Assembly (NCBI GenBank): GCA_946623785.1
Contig: CAMORM010000002.1
Span: 1-60,712, forward strand
Direction of reading: 5' to 3'
DNA length: 60,712 bases
Source of the DNA: an uncultured Verrucomicrobiota bacterium
GTDB lineage: Bacteria; Verrucomicrobiota; Kiritimatiellia; RFP12; UBA1067
Every line of letters begins with the position of its first letter. Position 1 is the stretch's first letter. Shown here in pieces: positions 21,527-37,407 of the stretch. The translations under genes were made by a program, and so were the position numbers. The notes under the pieces are model-generated. The model did no database searches. It saw nothing but the letters and a program-made list of their open reading frames with translations, and was not told the origin of the DNA.

Positions 21527-22801
21527 ATGAAGAGCATCATAGGGGTCGGGGTTGGTGCGCTAATTGCGATTGTATGCAATTTACGCGCCGAAAATCCAAA
21601 TTACATGATTTTTGACGAGGCGCATACGAATGAATCAGAGTGGGCCTTCGTCAATATAAAGTTTTATAACAACAAGGTAAATAATGCATATTTATCGTCA
21701 AGCGGGAGTATAATTGCCTCACCATTGTTCTCAAACTCGGTGATTCGGGTGGAGATATCCTTCATGGCAGCGTCGGTGAGTACACACAGGCTAATGAAGG
21801 TTGTGCCGCTTGACGGGTCGGGAAACGAGATTGAGTCTGGCGTGTGCGAGTTCGTGCCGCCGTTGGAGAAAGGCGTGGCGGAGGTTGCATGGCCGGCGGA
21901 GGCGGGGGTACGGCAGTTCAAGATTGGTGCCAACACTGGCGATGGCAACATCCACGTGTACGACTGCCTGGTTGCGCTGGCGGGCGCAGATGGCGCGCCG
22001 TCCGTTCCGTGCGGGCTGGAGAACCGCAAGGTGACTGGGAGTTCATTCGTTGCGGCGTGGAGAGCCTGCGAGGGGGCAGAATCGTACCTTGTGGACCTGT
22101 ACCGGGTGGACCGGATCGGGAGTTTGTGGAGCGGGGAGCCGTGGCGCGAGGATTTTGCGGATGCGGTCAACACGACCGGGAATCCCGTGCAGATCAGGGA
22201 CATACCTGCGCTTTTCCCGCAGCTGGAGGGCGAGAGGCTGTACATCCCGGCCCGGACAAACGGGTTGGTGCAGATCGGGACGGGAGACAAGGCGGGGCAT
22301 GTGGCACTTGTTGGCTGTCCGGCGGCAGAAGGCCGTGCCGTGCGGTTTCGGGCGAAGCGGTACAAGCACAAGGACGAGGGGAGCGTGATGCCGCTTTTGT
22401 GGACGGACGGAGGGGAAACGAACGCATTCGCGTCGGTGGAGCTTGCGGATGAAATGTCCGACTACGAAGTGCCGCTCGACGGCGTTCCGTCGGGAGCCGT
22501 GGTCCTTCTCCATTCCACCACGAACCGCAGCACCGGCGCAAGCGCGCGGGGGCGGGTGTGGCTTGACTCCGTTTCCGTTGTTTCGGGCTACACGCCGGCG
22601 CAGGTGGCAACGAACGCGGTGGCGGAAGGCGTCGTGGCATTGTCGCCTATGCGTAAGTTTTCCGGCCTTTGCGCGGGCACCCCGTATCTCTGGCGGGTGC
22701 GGTCGGTGCGAGGGGAGGCGGCTTCGGAGCCGTCGGCTCTCATGGAGGTTGTGCCAGAGGGCGCGCGGGAGAAGCCCGGTACGGCGGTTTGCTTCAGATA
22801 G
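21527..22801 (+). CDS. Hypothetical secreted protein (two beta-sandwich plus Fn3-like units)
   Basis: Signal peptide MKSIIGVGVGALIAIVCNLRAE. The ATG lies 7 nt after TGGTATAAT. The first ~90 codons are AT-rich and the rest is GC-rich. The protein ends in GTAVCFR. Confidence 0.65.
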   Translation: MKSIIGVGVGALIAIVCNLRAENPNYMIFDEAHTNESEWAFVNIKFYNNKVNNAYLSSSGSIIASPLFSNSVIRVEISFMAASVSTHRLMKVVPLDGSGNEIESGVCEFVPPLEKGVAEVAWPAEAGVRQFKIGANTGDGNIHVYDCLVALAGADGAPSVPCGLENRKVTGSSFVAAWRACEGAESYLVDLYRVDRIGSLWSGEPWREDFADAVNTTGNPVQIRDIPALFPQLEGERLYIPARTNGLVQIGTGDKAGHVALVGCPAAEGRAVRFRAKRYKHKDEGSVMPLLWTDGGETNAFASVELADEMSDYEVPLDGVPSGAVVLLHSTTNRSTGASARGRVWLDSVSVVSGYTPAQVATNAVAEGVVALSPMRKFSGLCAGTPYLWRVRSVRGEAASEPSALMEVVPEGAREKPGTAVCFR

Positions 22802-23601: not shown

Positions 23602-24078
23602 GTGAAGATACTGGAAACGCTGCTGGGAGGAAGGAAGCGGGAGAAGTCTGGGCTGGGGCGGACGGTCAGCGGCAGGCAAGGCAGCTGGGGGGAGGACATG
23701 GCGTGCCTTTACCTTGTCGAACGTGGGTGGACGGTGATAGAGCGGAACGCGCGCCCTTGCGCGAGCGACAGGCGGTGCGAGGTTGACATCATCGCGAAAA
23801 GCCCTGCGGGTGGAGTTGTGTTCGTCGAGGTAAAGACGCACCGGCGCCATTCCGAATACGCTTCGCGGCTCTGGCGCGTGGGGAAGCGGAAGAAGCGGCC
23901 GCTGCTGCGGGCGTGCGCCAGCTGGGTCATGGCGCACCGGTGGCACGGCAACTTCCGTTTCGACGTGATCCAGGTATACGGCGACAGAAGCTCCCCTGGT
24001 GGGCCAGAGATCGACCACATCGAGAACGTGCCGCTCTTCGGCCCGAACTGGCGTTTCTGGAGGGGGTGCGCGTCATGA
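23602..24078 (+). CDS. yraN: YraN-family (UPF0102) endonuclease-like protein
   Basis: GTG start after GGAGGGAG. Family strings GEDMACLYLVERGWTVIERN, EVDIIA, VVFVEVKT. Confidence 0.75.
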   Translation: MKILETLLGGRKREKSGLGRTVSGRQGSWGEDMACLYLVERGWTVIERNARPCASDRRCEVDIIAKSPAGGVVFVEVKTHRRHSEYASRLWRVGKRKKRPLLRACASWVMAHRWHGNFRFDVIQVYGDRSSPGGPEIDHIENVPLFGPNWRFWRGCAS

Positions 24079-24293
24079 GGGACTACGACCGCATAGTGCG
24101 CGACCAGATGGTGCTCGAGCGTGTTTCGGAGGTCGACCTCGAGATACTCGAGCGGTGTTTCGAGGCGGGGTACGATGCCGGCAGGTGGAGCGTCCCGCAC
24201 GACGCGCTCGTGCGGCTTTTGCCTGTTCCGTTGCCGCAGGACTGCGTCCGCTCCCGCGAAAACGGCCATGCCCTCGGTTTGCTTGACAGATAG
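24075..24293 (+). CDS. Small hypothetical protein (72 aa)
   Basis: The ATG overlaps the yraN stop (ATGA). It lies in frame within track ORF 23913..24293. No recognisable motif; support comes from coupling geometry only. Confidence 0.35.
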   Translation: MRDYDRIVRDQMVLERVSEVDLEILERCFEAGYDAGRWSVPHDALVRLLPVPLPQDCVRSRENGHALGLLDR

Positions 24294-24383
24294 CCCTTGC
24301 GATTTTTGCATATTTGCGCTCGTTTCCCGTTCGGTTTTTTGATAAACTAACCTTTCGTTTTTCCACAGAAAGGCAGAAAGAAC

Positions 24384-25673
24384 ATGAAAGTCGAGAAGAA
24401 AACCGCGGAGAAGTGCACGGTCAAGATTGCAGTCAAGGCAGAGGCGGACGAGGTTGCTGAAACCTACAAGAAGGTACTGAGGAAGTACATGCAGAACGTG
24501 CGGATTCCCGGTTTCCGTCCGGGCAAGGCTCCGCTCCAGATCGTGCAGCAGCACTTTGGCGAAGACATAAAGAACGACGTCAAGGGCGAGTGCTTCCGCA
24601 AGTTCTACCCCGAGGCGGTCAAGGAGTCCGGTGTCGAGGCGCTTCAGCTCGAGAACGTCGAAGACATGCTCTTTTCGCCCGAGACGGGCATTTCGTTCAC
24701 GGCCGTCGTCGCGGTGAAGCCCGAGTTCAAGCTCCCGAAGTACAAGAAGCTCTCGATCGACAAGCTCGAGGTGAACGTCACGGACAAGCAGGTCGGCGAC
24801 AGGGTCGAGAGCCTGCGCAAGGCGTACGCGAAGTACGAGGACGCGAAGGAGGGAGTGGCTGTTGCCGAGGGCGACTTCGTGCAGATCGACTACTCCGGCA
24901 CGCTTGACGGCAAGCCCATCTCCGATGTCGCGCCGGAGGCGAAGGCCGTTTCCGGTGCAACGGGCTTCTGGCTGCAGGCCGAGGAAGGGCGTTTCCTGCC
25001 GGAGCTGCTCGCGGCGCTCAAGGGGATGAAGGTCGGCGAGACCAAGGCCGGCGTGGCCGTTAAGTTCCCCGACGAGGCCCCCGAGGCGCTCAAGGGCAAG
25101 TCGGCCGAGTACACGCTTACAGTCAAGGCCCTTCGCAGCAGGGTGCTTCCGGACGACGAGCAGTTCCTCAAGGACGCCGGCGCGGAGTCGATGGACAAGC
25201 TCTGCGAGGACATCCGCGGCAAGATGGTGGCGGACGAGACGCGCGCGGAGGAGAGCCGCCGCCAGGACTACGCGATCGACCTGCTGCTGAAGGGCGCGGA
25301 CTTCGACGTGCCAGACTTCCAGGTGCGCAACGAGACTTCGGCGAACCTCGACAGGTACGCGCGCCAGGCGCAGTACTCGGGGCTCGACGCGGAGTACATC
25401 AAGCAGAACAGGGACCAGATCCTCGTGCAGGCCGAGGAGCAGGCGGTGCGCCAGGTGCGCCTGGCCTACATTCTCCAGGCCATCGCGAAGGAGGAGGGCA
25501 TCGCGGCGACGGACGAAGACGTCTCGGCCCGCATAGCGGAGATCGCAGAGGCGCGCCACGTGAAGCCCGAGGAGGTCCGCGAGAACCTCGAGAAGAGCGG
25601 CAGCATGGATGGGTTCAGGGAGCAGCTCCGCGCCGAGAAGTCGCTCAAGTTCGTAGTCGACGCGTCCAAGTAA
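24384..25673 (+). CDS. tig: Trigger factor
   Basis: Ribosome-binding signature GFRPGKAP near the N-terminus. Length and tig-clpP-clpX synteny fit. Confidence 0.93.
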
Positions 25674-25713
25674 GGCTTGTTTCGTAGTCCGCCAGTTGGA
25701 AAGGGCAGTTGCC

Positions 25714-26328
25714 ATGAAGGGTGAAAAGTCGTATCTCATACCGATGGTCGTGGAGCAGACGTCGCGCGGCGAGCGTTCCTACGACATATATTCCCGCCTG
25801 ATGCAGGACCGCATCGTGCTGCTCGGCGGCGAGGTGAACGACGAGAGCGCGAATCTCATCGTGGCGCAGCTCCTGTTCCTGCAGGCGCAGGACGCGAAGA
25901 AGGAGATATCGATGTACATCAACTCGCCGGGCGGAAGCGTCACGGCGGGTCTCGCCATCTACGACACGATGCAGTTCGTGAGCTGCCCTGTGGCGACGTA
26001 CTGCATCGGGCAGGCGGCCTCCATGGGCGCGGTGCTCCTCACGGCCGGCGCCAAGGGCCGCCGCTTCTCGCTGCCCAACTCCCGCATAATGATCCACCAG
26101 CCCTGGGGCGGGGCGGAAGGCAAGGCGAGCGACATCGAGATCACGGCGCGCGAGATACTGCGCCTCAAGGACCGCCTCAACCACATCCTTGCGGACCATT
26201 CGGGCAAGAAGTTCGAGGACGTCGTGAAGGACACGGACCGAGACTTCTTCATGAGCGCCGAGGAGGCCAGGGCATACGGCCTTGTGGACGAGGTGCTGAT
26301 GCCGACCAAGACCGGGGAGGCCCGCTGA
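25714..26328 (+). CDS. clpP: ATP-dependent Clp protease proteolytic subunit
   Basis: ORF trimmed to ATG 25714. Catalytic Ser in GQAASMGA and His in IMIHQP. Confidence 0.95.
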
Positions 26329-27623: not shown

Positions 27624-27974
27624 ATGACAGTCACGGTACTCAAGTCAAAGCTGCACCGCATCCGCGTCACGGAGGCCTGTCTGGAATACGCGGGTTCCCT
27701 TACGATCGACGAGGACCTGATGGACGCGGCCGGGATCCTCAACTGGGAGAAGCTGCTCGTTGCGAACGTGGAGAACGGCGAGCGCTTCGAGACCTATGCG
27801 ATAAAGGGGCCCCGCGGCAGCGGGACCTGCTGCCTCAACGGCGCCGCGGCGTGGAAGGGGCGCGTAGGGGACAGGCTCATCGTGATGGTATGGGCTGAAA
27901 TGACGGCGGAAGAGGCCTCTTCGCATGTGCCGAACGTGGTCGTGCTGGACGAAAGAAATTGTCCGGTTCACTGA
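27624..27974 (+). CDS. panD: Aspartate 1-decarboxylase proenzyme
   Basis: MTVTVLKSKLHRIRVTEACLEYAGSLTID carries the self-cleavage Gly24-Ser25 pair. GGGAGG RBS upstream. Confidence 0.9.
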   Translation: MTVTVLKSKLHRIRVTEACLEYAGSLTIDEDLMDAAGILNWEKLLVANVENGERFETYAIKGPRGSGTCCLNGAAAWKGRVGDRLIVMVWAEMTAEEASSHVPNVVVLDERNCPVH

Positions 27975-28003
27975 AAATCGCACTTGCCACCGCTCCGTTT
28001 TTG

Positions 28004-28012
28004 CGGTACAAT
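28004..28012 (+). promoter_or_regulatory. -10 box CGGTACAAT, 6 nt before ATG 28019 (leaderless candidate)
   Basis: TACAAT hexamer without the T of the TG extension. The ATG opens a signal peptide. Confidence 0.45.
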
Positions 28013-28018
28013 CGCATC

Positions 28019-31000
28019 ATGATGAAATCAAGACTAGATATACTCCGGCGTTTCGCGCTGGTTGCATGCTTCAGTTTCGCGGCGTTTCCCGTGCTTTCCC
28101 AGGACGCCCAGCAGGCTTCGGAGGCAGACGAGGCGGATGAACCGGCGGAGAAGACCGACCCCCTGATGGAGGAGGAGCTTTCCTACGCGCAGGCGCTGAT
28201 CGAATTCTACCCCGACTACGCGGACCCTGTGATACAGGCGGCCCGCAAGCGCTGGGCGGACGCAGGCCCGCGCCTCACCGCGCTCGAGATGCGCGGCAAG
28301 CTGCGCCTCGGCAAGTTCGACGAGGTGAAGGCAGCTCTCGCCAAGGTCGACAGGAAGACGAAGCCGGGCGAGTACTGGGCGATGAACCTCTCGCTGGGCG
28401 ACGCGTACTACAGCCAGGGCGACATGAAGTCCTGCGCCGCGATATACGACGACTTCTTCAAGTCCGTCCCGAAGCCCGACAAGTCGATCCGCGTCCTTTA
28501 CATCGAGTCCGCCTACAAGTGGGGGCAGATGCTCATCCGCGAGGGCAAGGAGGCTGAGGCCGCCAAGGTGTACGACGGCCTGATCTCGCAGCTCAAGGGC
28601 GCGGACAACCGCCTGCTCCGCGCAACCGTCCAGCTCGACAACGCCGAGCTCCTCCTCAAGCTCGCGGGCGAGGCGAAGGACGACGCCACGCGCAAGGGGT
28701 TCCTCGACCGCGCCGCGAAGCACCTCAAGGAGCCCCTGTGGATGGACGACGAGCCGCTGATCTTCGGCAGGGCGGTGGCGATGCGCGCGCACGTGGAGGT
28801 TCTGCGCGGGAAGCTCTCGAGCGCGAAGGACATGGTCGAGACGTACATCCCGCAGCTCAAGGAGATCCACGAGAGCCTCAAGGAGCAGGACCCGGACGGC
28901 AAGCTCGGGTACCTCCGCCAGTCTCCGATGCCCCAGTGCCGCTACCTCCTCGCGTCGATGATGTGGAAGGGCGTGCAGACGGAGCTCGCGAAGGGCGCTC
29001 CCGACGACGCGCTGATCCTCAACCTCCTCTTCGGCGAGAAGAACAAGAGCACTGGCAAGCGCGTTGGCGGCGGCGCGTACAACCACGCGGTCAACGTGGC
29101 GATCCAGTACCCCGAGTCCACCTGGGCTTCGGCGGCCGACGAGCTGGAGCGCAAGATACGGGAGCTTGTGAAGACGCGCTTCAAAAAGGAGATCAAGACG
29201 GCGATCACGGCCGAGCAGCGCAAGAAGATCCTCCAGATGAAGTTCAAGGACGCGCACGAGCTGTTCGGCAACAACGACTTCGCGGCCGCCGCGCCGAAGT
29301 ACGAGGAGGTACTTGCGGCAGTTCCGGAGACCACCGAGTCCGTGAGGTCCGTCGGCAACCTGATCACCTGCTGGCGCAACATGGTCCAGGACACGAAGGA
29401 CCCGAAGGAGAAGGAGTACCTCAACATGAAGATCGAGGCGGCGGAGGGCTACATCTCCGAGCGCTTCGGAGGGCTCTCGCCCGAGCTCCAGAGGGCCGGA
29501 GGCGACCAGACGCTCATCTTCGCGGCGCGCGAGCACGACAGCGGTGCGCTTGCGCGCGCCCAGCGCCTCTACGACAACTACTTCCAGAACTACCCGACCC
29601 ACCACCAGGCGGCGCAGATGGCGATGTCGCTCGCCTCGCAGGCCTTCCAGAAGGAGGACTACGAGACGGCGATGCACTACTACGAGGTGATCGTAAACAG
29701 CTACACCAACTCGCCGTACTACGTCCAGTCGCTCGGCCAGCTCTCGACGGCGGCCGGCAAGCTCGGGAACAACACGCTCGAGCTCGACTGGCTCCGCAAG
29801 TACGCCGCGCGCTGCACGAGCCCGTCGATGAAGGCCAACGCCCAGCTCCGCCTCGCCTACGCGCAGCACCGCGAGGGCATGTCGCTTCTGCGCCAGGCCG
29901 GTGAAGAGGCAAACGCCGAGGCGGCAGGAGAGCTCCGCAAGAAGGCGCGCGAGAACTTCGTGCAGGCGGCGCGCGAGTTCATCAAGCTCGTCAAGGACGC
30001 GGAGGCCGCAGCCAAGGACCCGTCCGTGTCCGCCACGGACAAGGCGAACTTCGAGAAGATGCGCGAGGACGCGCTGTACCTCATCGGCGACTCGATCCAG
30101 CGCATGCCGGCCGAGGGCAACGGCGATCCGCGCGCCGTGGCCGCACAGAAGTACAACGACTACCTCGCGGCGTACCCGAAGGGCAAGTTCGCCCCGACGG
30201 TGCTCATGAAGCTCGGCACGATCTACATCGCCACGACGAACACCGTGAAGCAGCAGGAGGTCTTCCAGCGCCTCGAGCGCGACTTCCCGGAGTCCGACGA
30301 AGCCAAGAACTCCAAGCCCCGCCTCGCCAAGACCCTCATGGACATGGGGCTCACGCAGGAGGCCGTCAAGCAGTACGCCGAGATGGTCGGCACGGACGCG
30401 AAGTATACCTCGCAGCAGCTGATGCAGGCCGGCGAGGCGCTTCTCGAAGGCGGCGGGAAGGACGGGCTCGACACGGCCATCCGGGCGTTCGACAAGTCAA
30501 TTGCGCGCGCCGGCACGAACCTGAACATGCTCGCCGTGATCGGCCGCTGCAAGCTCGGCAAGGGCAAGGCGCTTATGGCGCAGAACCGCCTCGTCGAGGC
30601 GCAGGAGCTCATGAGGAACTTCATGGACGACAAGCAGCTCGGCCGCACGACGATGGCGCTCGACGCGAACATGATGCTCATAGAGGCGGCTTCGAAGGCC
30701 GGCGAGAGGGAGCGCGACGACGATGCCCGCGAGACCTGCTTCAGGGACGCGCTTGCAGCGCTCCAGAAGGTCAAGCACCGCGTGAAGGGCGACGCCAGGA
30801 AGGAGAAGGAGCTTGCGCTTCTCGGCGGCGACATCCTCCTGAGGCGCATGCACGCCGAAGAGGCCATGAAGCTCGAGGAGCAGATGGTCAAGACGCGCGG
30901 CAGCGCCATCGCGAGCTACCGCGGCTACATCATGGGCAACAAGGTCGACGAGCAGCACCCCGCGTCCGGCATGCAGGCGTGGGAGCTCTCCAACCTCGAG

Positions 31001-31186
31001 CATGCGTACGCGTGCGTGCTGCCGCTCATCGCGGCACACATCCCCACCATCAAGGAGGACGACGTGCGCAAGGAGCTCGTTGCGGACGTCAACAGCCTTG
31101 GCGGCGAGTATCTCGAGCTCTTCCCGAACGGCAAGCACAAGATCGACGTGCAGAACGCGATGAACCTCGCGTCCGCCCAGCAGTGA
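28019..31186 (+). CDS. Large secreted TPR-repeat protein (1055 aa)
   Basis: ORF trimmed to ATG 28019, which lies 6 nt after TACAAT. Signal peptide MMKSRLDILRRFALVACFSFAAFPVLSQ. Helical TPR-like repeats run throughout. Confidence 0.8.
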   Translation: MMKSRLDILRRFALVACFSFAAFPVLSQDAQQASEADEADEPAEKTDPLMEEELSYAQALIEFYPDYADPVIQAARKRWADAGPRLTALEMRGKLRLGKFDEVKAALAKVDRKTKPGEYWAMNLSLGDAYYSQGDMKSCAAIYDDFFKSVPKPDKSIRVLYIESAYKWGQMLIREGKEAEAAKVYDGLISQLKGADNRLLRATVQLDNAELLLKLAGEAKDDATRKGFLDRAAKHLKEPLWMDDEPLIFGRAVAMRAHVEVLRGKLSSAKDMVETYIPQLKEIHESLKEQDPDGKLGYLRQSPMPQCRYLLASMMWKGVQTELAKGAPDDALILNLLFGEKNKSTGKRVGGGAYNHAVNVAIQYPESTWASAADELERKIRELVKTRFKKEIKTAITAEQRKKILQMKFKDAHELFGNNDFAAAAPKYEEVLAAVPETTESVRSVGNLITCWRNMVQDTKDPKEKEYLNMKIEAAEGYISERFGGLSPELQRAGGDQTLIFAAREHDSGALARAQRLYDNYFQNYPTHHQAAQMAMSLASQAFQKEDYETAMHYYEVIVNSYTNSPYYVQSLGQLSTAAGKLGNNTLELDWLRKYAARCTSPSMKANAQLRLAYAQHREGMSLLRQAGEEANAEAAGELRKKARENFVQAAREFIKLVKDAEAAAKDPSVSATDKANFEKMREDALYLIGDSIQRMPAEGNGDPRAVAAQKYNDYLAAYPKGKFAPTVLMKLGTIYIATTNTVKQQEVFQRLERDFPESDEAKNSKPRLAKTLMDMGLTQEAVKQYAEMVGTDAKYTSQQLMQAGEALLEGGGKDGLDTAIRAFDKSIARAGTNLNMLAVIGRCKLGKGKALMAQNRLVEAQELMRNFMDDKQLGRTTMALDANMMLIEAASKAGERERDDDARETCFRDALAALQKVKHRVKGDARKEKELALLGGDILLRRMHAEEAMKLEEQMVKTRGSAIASYRGYIMGNKVDEQHPASGMQAWELSNLEHAYACVLPLIAAHIPTIKEDDVRKELVADVNSLGGEYLELFPNGKHKIDVQNAMNLASAQQ

Positions 31187-32928: not shown

Positions 32929-33366
32929 ATGGCGACTAAGACACACGAGAACCCAGAACTCGACATGACGCCGATGATCGACGTCGTGTTCGAGCTCATC
33001 ATCTTCTTCGTGGTGACGCTGAAGATGGCTACGGACAAGGACGAATCCGTGCGCCTGGAGGACGGGAAGCACGGAATCATCCTCACTCCGGAAGAGCTGC
33101 CGCCTTCTCACATCACGATCGACATAGCGAAGAACGGGCGCATTTCGATGGCCAACGTGACTATGCACGGCCCCGAGATCACGCAGAAGATCAGGCAGCG
33201 CGTCGGCAAGTGGGGCACCGACTTCCCGGTGCTCATCCGCGCCGACTGGCGCTGCAAGCACGCCGCCGTTGCCGAGGTCATGAACGCATGCACCGCAGGC
33301 GGCGTGTGGAAGATATCATTCGTGGCTGTCCAGGAACGCAAGTCCGGGCAGAAGAAAACCGACTAA
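32929..33366 (+). CDS. exbD: ExbD/TolR biopolymer transport protein
   Basis: N-terminal LDMTPMIDVVFELIIFFVV motif, including the conserved Asp in the TM helix. Confidence 0.85.
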   Translation: MATKTHENPELDMTPMIDVVFELIIFFVVTLKMATDKDESVRLEDGKHGIILTPEELPPSHITIDIAKNGRISMANVTMHGPEITQKIRQRVGKWGTDFPVLIRADWRCKHAAVAEVMNACTAGGVWKISFVAVQERKSGQKKTD

Positions 33367-33381
33367 CCGAGGAACTGAGCC

Positions 33382-33780
33382 ATGAAATCCAACAGAAAGG
33401 AGCAGGAGCAGCCCAAGCTCGACATGACGCCGATGATCGACGTCGTGTTCGAGCTGATGATCTTCTTCGTGGTCACGCTGAAGCAGGACGACATCTTCTC
33501 CCGCCTCAACGCGAACCGCCCCGCTCCGAACTCAAAGCCGTCCGACTCCGCGCCGTCCGACCAGATCAAGATCGACATCGGTCCGGGAGGCTTCATCCTC
33601 AACGGGCGAGGAATGAGCAAGAGGGACCTGCGCGCGAACCTCAAGTCGCTTTCCGCGACGTCGAGGAACGCCACGGTCCTCATCAGCTGTACGATGGACT
33701 CGCCGCACATGTTCCTCATCGAGGCTCTCGACATGTGCCACGAGTACCGCATGGAAAACCTTTCGATATTCAGTATGTAA
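33382..33780 (+). CDS. exbD: ExbD/TolR biopolymer transport protein (second paralog)
   Basis: LDMTPMIDVVFELMIFFVV motif. Lies 15 nt after the first exbD. Confidence 0.85.
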   Translation: MKSNRKEQEQPKLDMTPMIDVVFELMIFFVVTLKQDDIFSRLNANRPAPNSKPSDSAPSDQIKIDIGPGGFILNGRGMSKRDLRANLKSLSATSRNATVLISCTMDSPHMFLIEALDMCHEYRMENLSIFSM

Positions 33781-33802: not shown

Positions 33803-35446
33803 ATGTCACTCAACGAAACAGACAACGTGATAGTCTCCGCCGACAGGTACAACGAAGCCGGCCTGTTCAAGCGCATCGGCAAGATGATGAAGGGCTTGTC
33901 CATGCGCCGCGACAGCCGCGAATACAAGGAGGCCCTCATCGAGCTGCAGCGCCTCTCGGCGCCGCTCACCGCAATACTGCTCCCGACGCTCGCGGTCATC
34001 ATCCTGATCGTCGTGTCGGCGGTAAGCGGAAACAAGCACGAGGAGATCCGCGCCGACATTGCGATGAACGACGACCAGGAGGAAAAGCTCGAGGAAATCG
34101 AGCCGCCGCCGGAAATGGAGCCGCCGCCGGAAATGGAGGTCGACCCCACGATCATGACCGACGTTCCCGCAGTGGGCAATCCTTCCGAGGTCGCGAACGC
34201 AATCGTCTCGAACGAGCCCGTAACCCCGAAGGTGAACAGCATCGACGCCATGCAGATGATAAAGTCGCCCGTCACGATGAAGAGCGTGTTCGGTTCGACC
34301 CGCTCCACCGGCAAGCGCGGCGCGTTCACCCGCGGCGGCGCACAGTACGGCGACGTGTTCACCGAGGCGGCGGTGCTCAAGGCCCTTCGCTGGCTCAAGC
34401 ACACCCAGAAGACCAACGGCAGCTGGGACGGTGGCTCCGCGCCGGCGATGACCGGCTTCGCGCTGCTCACCTACCTCGCCCATGGCGAGACTCCCTCGCA
34501 GTCGAAGGAGTTCGGCTATACCGTGCAGAAGGCGATCGAGTACCTCTTGAACTCCATCGAGTACGACCCCGACGGAAGGGCAAAGGCCTTCAAGGGCCAG
34601 GACGGCAACCAGTACTCCTTCCCGATCGCGACCTACGCTCTCTCCGAGGCGTACGGCATGACCCACAACCCGGACATCAAGTACCCGGCCGAGGCGTGCC
34701 TCAAGCGCATCGTCGACAACCAGTCCTCCACAGGCGGCTGGGACTACAAGCTCAACAAGGCCTCCAACCGCGACGACACCTCGCTTGGCGGCTGGTGCAT
34801 CCAGGCGCTCAAGGCAGGCAAGATGGCCGGCCTTCACCCGGACGGCCTCGACGAGTGCATAAAGAAGGCGATCAGCTGTCTCAAGACGCGCTCCTACGAC
34901 GAGAAGATCGGGTTCAAGTACACGGCCGACAGCAAGGGCGGCGGCGGACTGGCTGGCGTCGGCTGCCTCGCGATGCAGCTTCTCGGCTACAGCAAGGAGC
35001 CCGAGGTGCGCAACGCCCTCGGCGTGATGCGCGACTGGCTCCCGTCCTTCGACCCGATCAACGGCACCAACAAGAGCCCGCAGTACTACTGCTACTACGC
35101 CTCCCAGTGCAAGTACCAGGCCGGCATGGCCAAGTCCGCGTCGAAGAGCGACGCCGAGCTCTGGAAGAAGTGGAACCTCGAGATGAAGAAGCTCTACCCG
35201 CCCTCCATCATCACGCTCGACGAGAAGATCGAGGACGCGAACGGCAAGCTCCAGGAGATGGGCTACTGGCAGAACAAGGACCAGCACTTGCCCAGCAAGA
35301 CGATGGGCACCTGCCTTGCCGCCCTCCAGCTCATGGTCTACTACCGCTACCTCCCAACGACCTCCCTCAAGGCGACGGACGTCGAAGTCGACATCAACGA
35401 GGCCGCGAAGGACGCGTCCGAGGTGGGCGTCACGGTGGACATCTAA
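33803..35446 (+). CDS. TonB-position protein: N-terminal TM anchor, Pro/Glu linker, then a prenyltransferase/squalene-cyclase-like alpha/alpha toroid domain
   Basis: GGGAGGG RBS. TM helix LTAILLPTLAVIILIVVSAV. Linker EEIEPPPEMEPPPEMEVDP. Two QW-like motifs (LRWLKHTQKTNGSWDG and LKRIVDNQSSTGGWDY). I could not recognise a TonB C-terminal domain. Confidence 0.75.
   Translation: MSLNETDNVIVSADRYNEAGLFKRIGKMMKGLSMRRDSREYKEALIELQRLSAPLTAILLPTLAVIILIVVSAVSGNKHEEIRADIAMNDDQEEKLEEIEPPPEMEPPPEMEVDPTIMTDVPAVGNPSEVANAIVSNEPVTPKVNSIDAMQMIKSPVTMKSVFGSTRSTGKRGAFTRGGAQYGDVFTEAAVLKALRWLKHTQKTNGSWDGGSAPAMTGFALLTYLAHGETPSQSKEFGYTVQKAIEYLLNSIEYDPDGRAKAFKGQDGNQYSFPIATYALSEAYGMTHNPDIKYPAEACLKRIVDNQSSTGGWDYKLNKASNRDDTSLGGWCIQALKAGKMAGLHPDGLDECIKKAISCLKTRSYDEKIGFKYTADSKGGGGLAGVGCLAMQLLGYSKEPEVRNALGVMRDWLPSFDPINGTNKSPQYYCYYASQCKYQAGMAKSASKSDAELWKKWNLEMKKLYPPSIITLDEKIEDANGKLQEMGYWQNKDQHLPSKTMGTCLAALQLMVYYRYLPTTSLKATDVEVDINEAAKDASEVGVTVDI
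34100..34135 (+). repeat. Perfect 18-nt tandem duplication inside the TonB-like linker
   Basis: GAGCCGCCGCCGGAAATG occurs twice, encoding EPPPEM EPPPEM. Confidence 0.9.
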
Positions 35447-36670
35447 GTGACGTTCCCCGTATTTCTTGCCGCTAAGTACCTAAAGCCGAAGCGGTCGCTA
35501 GCGTCGGTCATCACCTGTGTGTCGGTGACCGGCGTTATGCTTGGTGTGGCGATTGTCGTCATCGTCCGCGCCGTCATGACCGGCTTCGGCGACATGTGGC
35601 AGGAGAAGATACTGAACTTCAAGCCGCACCTGACCGTGCTTGCGCGGTCGGGTGTCGTCATTTCGGACGACGACCGCCTCGTTCCCGAATTCGAGCGGAT
35701 CCCGGGCGTCTCGTGCGTCTCCCCCGAGATCGATACGCGCGTGCTGCTTGCCTGCGAGGGCCGCGTGAGCGCGCCCATGCTCCTGGGCGTGGAGGCCGAG
35801 AGGATGAAGAAGGCCTTCCACCTCGGCGAGCCGTACATGGGGAGATACGACCTCGACGGCGACTCCATCGTGCTCGGCATAGATCTCGCAGAGTCGCTCG
35901 GGGCGTATGTGGGCGCGAAGGTCACGGTCTATTCGCCGAAAACCCTTGTCTCGCGCGACGAAGTCGTTCTTCCCGTGAAGTGGACCGTCACCGGGATCTT
36001 CTCGACGGGGCAGCGCGACTACGACTCTGGCTATGCGGTTGCATCGCTCTACAACGTACGCGAGCTGATGGCGCTCGACAGCGGCGTGTACGCGATCCAC
36101 ATCAAGACCGACTCTCCGGCGGACCACGAGGCCTTCGGCAGAATAGCCGAAGCCGTCCGCGCCACTGCCCCGAACAGGAGGGTGATTACCTGGCAGGAGG
36201 CGGACCGCGGGATATTCAACGCCCTTGCCGTGGAGAAGAACATGATGGCCCTGCTGCTGATGTTCATAACGGTTGTGGCCATGTTCTGCGTAATGAACAC
36301 GCTTCTCGTGCTCACAGTCCAGAAAACCTCGGAGATCGGACTCCTAAAGGCGCTCGGTTTTTCGCCCCTCGAGATAATGGGCGCGTTTGTCGTGCACGGT
36401 TTCGTGCAGTGCCTGGCCGGAATCGTGCTGGGCCTGGGGCTTGCATTCGCCATCCTCGCGAACCTCCAGAACCTTGTAGAGCTTCTCGCCCGCTTCGGGC
36501 TCGAGGTCTTCCCGAAGGCGATCTACGGACTCGACGCGATACCGTACAGAATCGTCACCGCCGATGTCGTGTGGACCGTAGTCGCGGTCGTCGTGTTCGG
36601 CGCGCTCGCCTCCCTCATCCCGGCCACTGTCGCCGTTTCCAAGAACCCAGTCGAAGCGCTAGGAAAGTAG
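35447..36670 (+). CDS. lolE: LolC/LolE-type lipoprotein-release permease (FtsX/MacB fold)
   Basis: GTG start directly after the upstream TAA. N-terminus FLAAKYLKPKR. One TM helix, a periplasmic domain, then three TM helices. Confidence 0.8.
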   Translation: MTFPVFLAAKYLKPKRSLASVITCVSVTGVMLGVAIVVIVRAVMTGFGDMWQEKILNFKPHLTVLARSGVVISDDDRLVPEFERIPGVSCVSPEIDTRVLLACEGRVSAPMLLGVEAERMKKAFHLGEPYMGRYDLDGDSIVLGIDLAESLGAYVGAKVTVYSPKTLVSRDEVVLPVKWTVTGIFSTGQRDYDSGYAVASLYNVRELMALDSGVYAIHIKTDSPADHEAFGRIAEAVRATAPNRRVITWQEADRGIFNALAVEKNMMALLLMFITVVAMFCVMNTLLVLTVQKTSEIGLLKALGFSPLEIMGAFVVHGFVQCLAGIVLGLGLAFAILANLQNLVELLARFGLEVFPKAIYGLDAIPYRIVTADVVWTVVAVVVFGALASLIPATVAVSKNPVEALGK

Positions 36671-36682
36671 GAGCCGCGGACA

Positions 36683-37342
36683 ATGCTGCTTGAAGTCAAA
36701 TCGCTTGCGAAGACGTACAGGATTCCGGGACAGCCCGCGGTCGAGGTGCTGAAGGACGTGTCGTTCGAGGTGGCGTCAGGCGAGCGCGTCGCGATCGTAG
36801 GCCGGAGCGGAGCCGGGAAGTCAACGCTCCTCAACCTGCTCGCGGGGCTGGACAGGCCGACTGCCGGTTCGGTGACCCTCGACGGCCGCAAGGTCACCGG
36901 CAAGGTCCGCGCCGCCAAGATAGGATTCGTGTTCCAGAGCTACAACCTGCTGCCTGAGCTCGACGTGCTGGAGAACGTGACCCTCCCGGCGATGTCGTTC
37001 CGCGCGCCAGCGAGCATGACGGCGGCGAGGAAGCGCGCGGCCGAGCTACTCGAGGCGGTCGGGCTTTCCGCGCGAGCGCACCATCTCCCCGCGGAGCTTT
37101 CGGGCGGCGAGCAGCAGCGCGTCGCGCTTGCCCGTGCGCTCGTGTGCGGCCCGGAGCTCATCCTTGCGGACGAGCCCACGGGCAACCTCGACTCGCTCAC
37201 CGGCGCCGACATAATGCGCCTCCTCGTCGAGCTTTCGAAGGGGACCGACCTCGCACTCGTGATGGTCACGCATTCCGCCGAGGCCGCCGCCGCGTGCTCG
37301 CGAGTCCTCCGCCTGGAAGCCGGGCGCATAGCAGCTTCCTGA
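36683..37342 (+). CDS. lolD: LolD-type ABC ATPase
   Basis: Walker A GRSGAGKST, signature LSGGEQQRVALARAL, Walker B ILADEPT. Confidence 0.85.
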   Translation: MLLEVKSLAKTYRIPGQPAVEVLKDVSFEVASGERVAIVGRSGAGKSTLLNLLAGLDRPTAGSVTLDGRKVTGKVRAAKIGFVFQSYNLLPELDVLENVTLPAMSFRAPASMTAARKRAAELLEAVGLSARAHHLPAELSGGEQQRVALARALVCGPELILADEPTGNLDSLTGADIMRLLVELSKGTDLALVMVTHSAEAAAACSRVLRLEAGRIAAS

Positions 37343-37398
37343 AGGCGCCGCTCCTGCGGCGAGAGGCAGATTTTCTAGTGTGACGCGCGCGCCTAAAA

Positions 37399-37407
37399 TG
37401 GTATAAT
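37399..37407 (+). promoter_or_regulatory. Extended -10 box TGGTATAAT, 7 nt before ATG 37415 (leaderless candidate)
   Basis: Exact motif. Confidence 0.6.

Follow-up and report, generated by a model that had tools for sequence, protein, structure and literature searches.

In diderm bacteria, Ton and Tol are the two textbook routes by which energy of the inner membrane reaches the outer membrane. The D-box of TonB is a strand located directly past the membrane anchor and before the polyproline region; it is captured by the ExbD dimer and has the pattern hydrophobic-polar-hydrophobic-polar-hydrophobic-hydrophobic-polar (PMC10907165). The element was named 'motor box' in a 2025 survey, which described transducers built of a transmembrane (TM) helix, a disordered linker and a vWA (von Willebrand factor A) head, encoded downstream of TPR-tolQ-tolR-tolR (TPR, tetratricopeptide repeat) in bacteria of the Planctomycetes-Verrucomicrobia-Chlamydiae (PVC) group (Mol Biol Evol 2025, PMC12204202). 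What led to these vWA transducers, proposed there as substitutes, was the lack of a recognisable TonB or TolA in Tichowtungia aerotolerans, a species of the Kiritimatiellota (PMC12204202). Here we analyse a gene located in a 60,712-nt stretch of DNA from an uncultured Kiritimatiellia bacterium of the Verrucomicrobiota (contig CAMORM010000002.1, positions 1 to 60,712; hereafter the window). Its product combines a TonB-like anchor with a toroid of the terpenoid-cyclase/prenyltransferase kind and, judging from its sequence and its neighbours, is probably the force-transducer subunit, in the position of TonB or TolA, of the adjacent PVC-type ExbB-ExbD1-ExbD2 (5:2-type) motor. Coordinates of all features are collected in Table 1.

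The vWA-headed transducers are the closest published concept, and what is new here is the toroid head. In both kinds of protein, a disordered Pro-rich linker that carries a motor-box strand connects the TM helix to a globular head unlike that of TonB, and both are encoded downstream of TPR-tolQ-tolR-tolR-type genes in PVC bacteria. They differ in the head itself, an all-alpha (alpha/alpha)6 toroid of squalene-hopene cyclase (SHC) type here and a vWA domain (double Rossmann) there, and in the His of the SHLS motif, which is kept by the vWA proteins and absent from the toroid protein. The latter also stands out by a long cytoplasmic N-terminus and by a C-terminal tail, both conserved, and in gut Kiritimatiellae its gene shares one operon with LolCE and LolD genes. 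Toroid or cyclase-like heads go unmentioned in the 2025 survey (PMC12204202), and a full-text literature search returned nothing relevant on toroid or prenyltransferase heads with ExbB, ExbD or TolQ. An earlier reading of this DNA, made from the letters alone (the sequence-only reading), had taken a periplasmic toroid driven by the proton-motive force to be an undescribed arrangement; this agrees with the search, the nearest described case being the vWA-headed transducers.

Compared with TonB and TolA, the toroid protein has the same N-in anchor, a D-box-like strand past the TM helix and a Glu/Pro-rich spacer spanning the periplasm. Its gene is likewise located beside exbB and exbD, there are likewise several paralogues per genome, some of them orphan, and the presence of a CpoB-like TPR protein in the operon is shared with Tol-Pal. 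Unlike TonB and TolA, the protein has neither a TonB_C or TolA-III domain nor the SHLS motif, carries about 50 conserved cytoplasmic residues and is encoded next to two different ExbD subunits. TolB, Pal and TonB-dependent transporters are all missing among the ORFs annotated around the operon, the rest of the window being unscanned.

The sequence-only reading ascribed to the protein the front half of a TonB or TolA, and this has been borne out by the N-in anchor, the conserved strand motif past the TM helix and the Glu/Pro spacer. Ahead of the anchor, residues 20-50 form two helices (FKRLGKMFxGL...SREYKEAxIELQR) with the highest conservation outside the toroid (majority fraction 0.79 vs 0.72 for the toroid). 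Hydropathy of the anchor peaks at residues 56-74 (score 2.7). As the TM helix is flanked by K/R-rich sequence on the N-side and by acidic sequence on the C-side, the topology is predicted to be N-in, C-out. The AlphaFold2 (AF2) model built on a 37-sequence alignment has a continuous helix 39-74, in which the cytoplasmic helix runs into the TM helix, and TM residues A53, P54, A57, P61, L68 and V71 are invariant in close homologues. The absence of the SHLS His, also noticed in the earlier reading, was confirmed: residues 51-74 contain neither a His nor an SHLS motif, and just 29 of 265 family members have a His in or beside the TM helix.

The D-box-like strand has the family consensus EIKVEIVQA, which is located eight residues past the TM helix and follows the hydrophobic-polar-hydrophobic-polar-hydrophobic-hydrophobic-polar pattern. 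The strict D-box pattern was found in 166 of the 265 TM-bearing family members, with 14.4 expected from shuffled segments; since the family sequences are related, this count reflects a conserved family feature and not independent events. The strict pattern is nearly always located at +7 to +10 from the end of the TM helix.

The toroid gene is the sixth of eight genes transcribed in the same direction, in the order TPR, TPR, ExbB, ExbD, ExbD, toroid, LolCE and LolD. The proton channel subunit has TolQ as its best NCBIfam match (5.4e-17), followed by ExbB (8.7e-11), both below the cut-off. The two ExbD paralogues are 51% identical over 70 residues. The best named match of the large TPR protein is tol_pal_ybgF (CpoB/YbgF; E 3.3e-18, 66 bits vs a cut-off of 90). 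The stop codon of the toroid gene is followed without a gap by the GTG start codon of the LolCE gene. No terminator-like site was found on the + strand between the promoter-like site at the head of the operon (27984-28012) and position 37342; the promoter-like site that follows occupies 37380-37407.

Conservation of this order was surveyed at the 80 best loci with a relative in the GTDB species-representative collection, with the neighbours located by tblastn. All 80 are gut or rumen contigs of Kiritimatiellae type, some of them in mislabelled bins. The same cassette is present, as far as the contig reaches, at about 65 of these loci, and about 43 have all eight genes; where the set is incomplete, there is mostly no LolD/LolCE match or the contig ends. 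The full gene order was also found at 86-89% identity and, on a 293-kb contig, at 54% identity. In a Verrucomicrobiota metagenome-assembled genome (MAG), the TPR-TPR-ExbB-ExbD-ExbD-toroid core is kept at 37% identity and is followed by mutL and two further anchored toroid paralogues, not by Lol genes. About 12 loci have toroid copies without motor genes nearby, and in the tree such orphan copies make up at least four groups, each with operon copies around it. TonB, too, commonly has orphan paralogues that share a motor, so orphan toroid copies do not argue against coupling.

Some side observations were made in the course of the survey. The MAG with the six-gene core has four toroid genes within 15 kb (L087:2317-16969), including a shorter one (383 aa) located upstream. 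Another locus (L085:3228-21581) carries tandem divergent toroid paralogues (553 and 526 aa) beside an ABC/FtsX pair and a 383-aa toroid protein, as well as a secretin/T2SS-T4P-like (type II secretion/type IV pilus) set with pilin-like genes. Contigs with the Kiritimatiellae-type operon (loci L019, L038, L046, L051, L052, L057 and L059) belong to assemblies that bear the names Clostridiales, Methanomethylophilaceae, Faecalibacterium, Lachnospira, Gemmiger, Barnesiella and Azospirillum; these bins are probably mislabelled or contaminated.

Natural fusions of the toroid provide another line of evidence. The P0129 protein comprises a hydrophobic N-terminus, an ExbD periplasmic domain (residues 53-172), an EP-rich linker, the toroid and the tail, so that the ExbD domain replaces the usual anchor and D-box region. 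It may be taken as a Rosetta-stone-type hint that the anchor/D-box region and ExbD work together. In other proteins, the toroid is fused to Sel1 repeats (P0196), to TolB-like PD40 repeats (P0271), with two toroids in one 1729-aa protein, or, via a TM helix, to cytoplasmic Ser/Thr kinases (P0184, P0211); P0125 combines the toroid with a polytopic membrane and TPR region. The fusions to kinases, PD40 and Sel1 repeats indicate that the toroid behaves as a mobile extracytoplasmic binding module. Taken with synteny and motifs, the P0129 fusion supports coupling to the motor, which we regard as rather probable; docking, force transmission and the nature of the partner are inferred.

The kinase fusions also fit another view of the protein, namely that it is a tethered periplasmic binding or sensor protein which serves as a scaffold or a signal without being driven by the motor and has the TPR proteins or the Lol transporter as partners. 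In the Ser/Thr kinases P0184 and P0211 the same toroid makes up the extracytoplasmic part, as in a sensor, the highly conserved cytoplasmic helices 20-50 have no TonB counterpart and could bind a cytoplasmic partner, the SHLS His is absent and many paralogues are located away from motor genes. However, the position directly after ExbD2 is kept in two phyla, the D-box-like strand has a constant offset from the TM helix, a natural fusion of an ExbD domain to the toroid exists, and sharing of one motor by orphan TonB paralogues is common. We therefore consider a sensor or scaffold that is independent of the motor unlikely.

Several points weigh against the transducer function as well. The link to the motor is drawn from synteny, motifs and one fusion protein, and that protein is itself only one cluster representative. 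The His of SHLS, with which TonB, TolA and the published vWA transducers dock on the motor, is missing from the TM helix, and the strand of the window protein, IRADIAM, misses the strict pattern, at the last position only (M in place of a polar residue). The relatedness of the 265 family members, mentioned above, belongs here too. Tol-type and Lol-type NCBIfam matches are all below the curated cut-offs, and distant paralogues (33-39% identity) are found in unrelated contexts.

The head was assigned to a fold by structure prediction and profile comparison. AF2 predicts one confident domain, residues 183-514 (predicted local distance difference test, pLDDT, ~90), consisting of twelve helices that alternate between outer and inner positions, so the toroid expected in the sequence-only reading is recovered as an (alpha/alpha)6 structure. 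Foldseek against PDB returned (alpha/alpha)6 toroids only: GH76 mannanases, SHC, epimerases of the N-acylglucosamine 2-epimerase (AGE) type, and thioester domains of complement C3 and alpha-2-macroglobulin (A2M). Target-normalised template-modelling (TM) scores were mostly 0.5-0.69, with 0.17-0.34 against large multi-domain chains (1sqc, C3, A2M), and sequence identity of the matches was 10-17%. Single-sequence searches of Pfam, NCBIfam and PDB gave SHC signals below threshold only (PF13243, 14.6 bits vs a cut-off of 26.1; TIGR01787, 15.9 vs 322.7), and no TonB_C (PF03544) or TolA match was found in Pfam or NCBIfam even at E<=10. With a profile of 17 diverse family members, the match to SHC (2sqc) reaches E 5e-13 and that to several proteins labelled 'SQHop_cyclase_C domain' 1e-9, and PF13243 is detected in 14 of the 17 members. 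By these profile matches, the head is a genuine member of the terpenoid-cyclase/prenyltransferase toroid superfamily.

Both QW motifs proposed earlier are present. The first one, K193-W208, fits the canonical [KR][GA]xx[FYW][LIV]xxxQx2-5GxW; its W197, Q202 and G206 are invariant family-wide and W208 is kept in at least 90% of the sequences. The second one (Q-x3-G-G-W, residues 307-313) has a weaker upstream half. Two acidic residues, E282 and D325, show no variation in the diverse family; at position 324, S, N, K, P, I or Q can take the place of Asp. The protein is tied to the SHC/prenyltransferase superfamily (PF13243, PF13249, PF00432) by its QW motifs, its (alpha/alpha)6 fold and the profile match to 2sqc, and differs from it in having a single toroid without DxDD, in scoring below Pfam and NCBIfam thresholds and in its predicted periplasmic location on a long tether.

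The acid motif of class II cyclases is DxDD. It was suggested earlier that its absence would point to a binding module, and it is absent here: a class II cyclase needs Asp at position 322, which is N in this protein and never D in either alignment. A cyclase was also rejected because of the single toroid of ~330 aa in place of the two-domain (beta-gamma) body and scores far below the family cut-offs. As for the thioester domain, CGEQ is missing and the nearest sequence, G-C388-LAM-Q392, differs in spacing and varies in relatives; A2M/complement thioester-domain matches were weak in the family profile and in member scans. Of the two folds offered in the sequence-only reading, the SHC/prenyltransferase barrel is thus upheld by profile, AF2 and Foldseek, and the thioester-type fold is dropped.

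A membrane-anchored enzyme would either have an isoprenoid lipid as its substrate, as a class II terpene cyclase or prenyltransferase, or be a periplasmic carbohydrate-active enzyme similar to GH76 or AGE. The first of these is what public labels of relatives imply ('terpene cyclase/mutase family protein', 'prenyltransferase/squalene oxidase repeat-containing protein'), in line with the SHC profile match, but DxDD is absent (N322), a single toroid is present, the PF13243 score stays below its cut-off, and the head is separated by ~110 disordered residues from the membrane, where lipid substrates would be located. The catalytic pair of GH76 is two adjacent Asp. D324-D325 is such a pair and GH76 mannanases are among the top Foldseek matches; E282 and D325 are invariant as well. 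However, the D324-D325 pair is present in this protein and close orthologues, operon-linked Verrucomicrobiota orthologues having RKD, and D325 alone of the RDDTS motif is invariant family-wide. Similarity to GH76 is that of fold only (TM scores 0.61-0.69 at 11-15% identity; 10-15% for GH76 and AGE structures together), and no GH76 or AGE match was obtained in the 17-member sequence-profile search. Enzymatic activity of either kind is accordingly rated as very unlikely. Since the toroid lacks the cyclase catalytic motif, the head is more likely a non-catalytic binding module than an enzyme.

The gene is real, conserved and expressed. It starts with ATG preceded by a GGAGG-like sequence ~9 nt upstream, and its GC content at third codon positions (GC3, 0.92) is similar to that of the neighbouring genes. 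Word-indexed search returned more than 2,000 homologues; those with 54-92% identity are 527-620 aa long, and their end-to-end alignments cover 95-100% of the query. In an exhaustive search of a 50%-identity library, 7,634 cluster representatives were found at E<=1e-3, 450 of them below 1e-30. Most library homologues have 520-590 aa, with alignments that run from residue ~15 to 545, and nearly the whole protein length is matched by most of the 150 cluster representatives listed. Metatranscriptome contigs from four rumen or sheep-gut sets cover parts of the gene at 95-99% identity, and one RNA contig (33729-33993) spans the ExbD2-to-toroid junction; these contigs, on which the claim of expression is based, have low depth, and DNA carry-over is possible. 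That the ORF is an artefact, two genes joined by a frameshift or a miscalled frame, has practically no likelihood left: the frame is free of internal stops and frameshifts, the full-length homologues have the same architecture, contigs of four sheep/cattle gut metagenomes (three studies) are indel-free over the 351-nt linker stretch (33950-34300), and RNA contigs lie on parts of the gene.

The Glu/Pro linker and the perfect 18-nt duplication reported earlier are present as described. The spacer lies within ~110 disordered residues (pLDDT <50; disordered stretch 77-182 in AF2). The repeat units 34100-34117 and 34118-34135 are identical, and Tandem Repeats Finder (TRF) extends the repeat to 34093-34138 (period 18, 2.6 copies, 96% matches). 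The further suggestion that linker length is evolving quickly found no support when repeat numbers were compared among relatives and metagenomes. The two-unit EPPPExEPPPxx is equally long in each of the 37 aligned homologues, whose identity goes down to 54%, DNA of close relatives has the same two units with point differences only, and contigs from the four sheep/cattle metagenomes show linker SNPs only, one of them inside the repeat, and no indels.

Further conserved elements are located before the toroid, at its end and behind it. The pre-toroid segment 143-184 has a majority fraction of 0.74, on a par with the toroid, is disordered in AF2 and may be a partner-binding region. The closing motif YYRYLPT is invariant at all seven positions in the 37 close homologues and also ends each toroid in multidomain relatives. 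The C-terminal tail follows the alternating, strand-like family pattern D-[IV]-x-[IV]-x-[IV/L], with low AF2 confidence; it may be a beta-strand-like docking element.

If the protein is a transducer of the motor, it could work as follows. The anchor and the cytoplasmic helices would dock on ExbB, while the periplasmic ExbD1/ExbD2 heterodimer would capture the D-box-like strand. Proton flow would then pull or turn the linker that spans the periplasm. The toroid and the tail would be the head that grips, without catalysis, a partner located in or close to the outer membrane, with the pre-toroid segment and the C-terminal tail as possible partner-docking elements. Such a partner may be one of the TPR proteins of the operon, a lipoprotein that the co-transcribed Lol transporter delivers to the outer membrane, or a glycan or lipid ligand.

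Table 1. Features of the toroid protein and of its operon, in window coordinates.
Feature	Position	Strand	Basis
Toroid-headed protein with TonB-like anchor, 547 aa	33803..35446	+	ORF, homologue alignment, AF2, profile search
Cytoplasmic N-terminus, residues 1-50	33803..33952	+	Alignment, AF2
Single TM helix, residues 51-74, LSAPLTAILLPTLAVIILIVVSAV	33953..34024	+	Hydropathy, alignment, family survey
D-box-like strand I82-R-A-D-I-A-M-N89, 8 residues past TM helix	34046..34069	+	Family pattern survey
Glu/Pro spacer EEIEPPPEMEPPPEMEVDP, residues 97-115	34091..34147	+	Translation, alignment
18-nt tandem repeat, GAGCCGCCGCCGGAAATG twice, exact at 34100-34135	34093..34138	+	TRF
Pre-toroid segment, residues 143-184, KVxxxDAMxxIKSPVTMKSV.G..R.TG.RG..T.GGA.YGD	34229..34354	+	Alignment, AF2
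(alpha/alpha)6 toroid, residues 185-514, 12 helices, two beta-hairpin inserts	34355..35344	+	AF2, Foldseek, profile
QW motif 1, K193-A-L-R-W-L-K-H-T-Q-K-T-N-G-S-W208	34379..34426	+	Pattern, PDB/profile comparison, alignment
QW motif 2, Q307-S-S-T-G311-G-W313	34697..34741	+	Pattern, alignment
R-D324-D325-T-S, start of inner helix	34769..34783	+	Alignments
YYRYLPT, closing motif of toroid family	35339..35359	+	Alignments
C-terminal tail ASEVGVTVDI	35414..35443	+	Alignments
Promoter-like site TTGCCA-17-TACAAT, operon head	27984..28012	+	Promoter/terminator scan
Large secreted TPR protein, 1075 aa from longest ORF	27959..31186	+	TPR families; position kept in relatives
Small TPR-like protein, 273 aa, N-terminal signal-peptide-like segment	31209..32030	+	Position kept in relatives
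MotA/TolQ/ExbB-family proton channel subunit, 268 aa	32090..32896	+	PF01618 E 6e-25
ExbD/TolR paralogue 1, 145 aa, TM Asp kept (TPMIDVVFEL)	32929..33366	+	PF02472 E 1.8e-21; TolR 4e-11
ExbD/TolR paralogue 2, 132 aa, TM Asp kept	33382..33780	+	PF02472 E 7e-19
LolC/E-type lipoprotein-release permease	35447..36670	+	MacB_PCD, FtsX; lolCE E 3e-70, below equivalog cut-off
LolD-type ABC ATPase, last operon gene	36683..37342	+	LolD E 3e-66, below cut-off

In the large TPR gene, the longest ORF begins with TTG at 27959. As the promoter-like site lies inside this ORF, the actual start is probably the ATG at ~28019 (MMKSRLDIL..., signal-peptide-like), which would give a nearly leaderless transcript. In the motor genes, RNA contigs from two runs (window 32964-33452) join similar N-terminal parts of ExbD1 and ExbD2 with ~420 unlike letters between them; most likely these joints reflect the ExbD1 of a divergent relative or shared N-terminal ExbD sequence, not RNA processing.

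The surroundings of the operon are mostly housekeeping. clpP and clpX are located directly upstream, preceded by unrelated GDP-mannose dehydratase and radical-SAM genes, and acyl-CoA synthetase and fmt genes are located downstream; in close relatives, trigger factor and panD are found beside clpP and clpX. Two ORFs of the window, of 424 aa (21527-22801, +) and 675 aa (23709-25739, -), have no Pfam match at E<=1e-4.

The neighbours also bear on the process in which the putative transducer could take part. The best matches of its neighbours are TolQ, TolR and CpoB (below the cut-offs), Lol genes are coupled to it, the operon lies in a housekeeping context, and relatives fuse the toroid to TolB-like repeats. 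For these reasons we lean slightly towards a constitutive Tol-like role in the envelope over Ton-like import of polymers.

Ton-like polymer import is the alternative, with the MUL1 locus of Akkermansia muciniphila as a lead only. Mul1A is a TPR protein and MUL1 carries TPR and ExbB/ExbD genes, which would make it a possible cassette of the same type in a sister PVC phylum. In the published record, mul1A (Amuc_0544) is described as a mucin transport gene (PMC12570417), and Amuc_0546 is one of the up-regulated transporter genes in a list whose order pairs it with 'biopolymer' (PMC11480725).

A wider generalisation is possible, although we regard it as doubtful. The toroid transducer, the two TPR proteins and the motor might add to Ton and Tol a third class of machine that works across the envelope and is driven by protons, which would replace the missing TonB/TolA in Kiritimatiellota and neighbouring PVC lineages and would use exchangeable heads (toroid, vWA and others). 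It belongs to this generalisation, and is held as tentatively, that the head grips a non-protein or lipoprotein partner at the outer membrane and that the cassette serves both maintenance of the outer membrane and a kind of large-glycan uptake that needs no TonB receptor, with Akkermansia MUL1 as the example.

Overall, the locus adds a different and very widespread head to the same motor cassette. Should the coupling prove real, 5:2 motors would be seen to drive periplasmic 'hands' that are interchangeable, and the common annotation of these proteins as 'terpene cyclase/mutase family protein' would have to be corrected. The toroid transducer would then be a candidate for attachment of the outer membrane, or for polymer import without SusC/TonB receptors, in glycan-degrading gut and marine bacteria.

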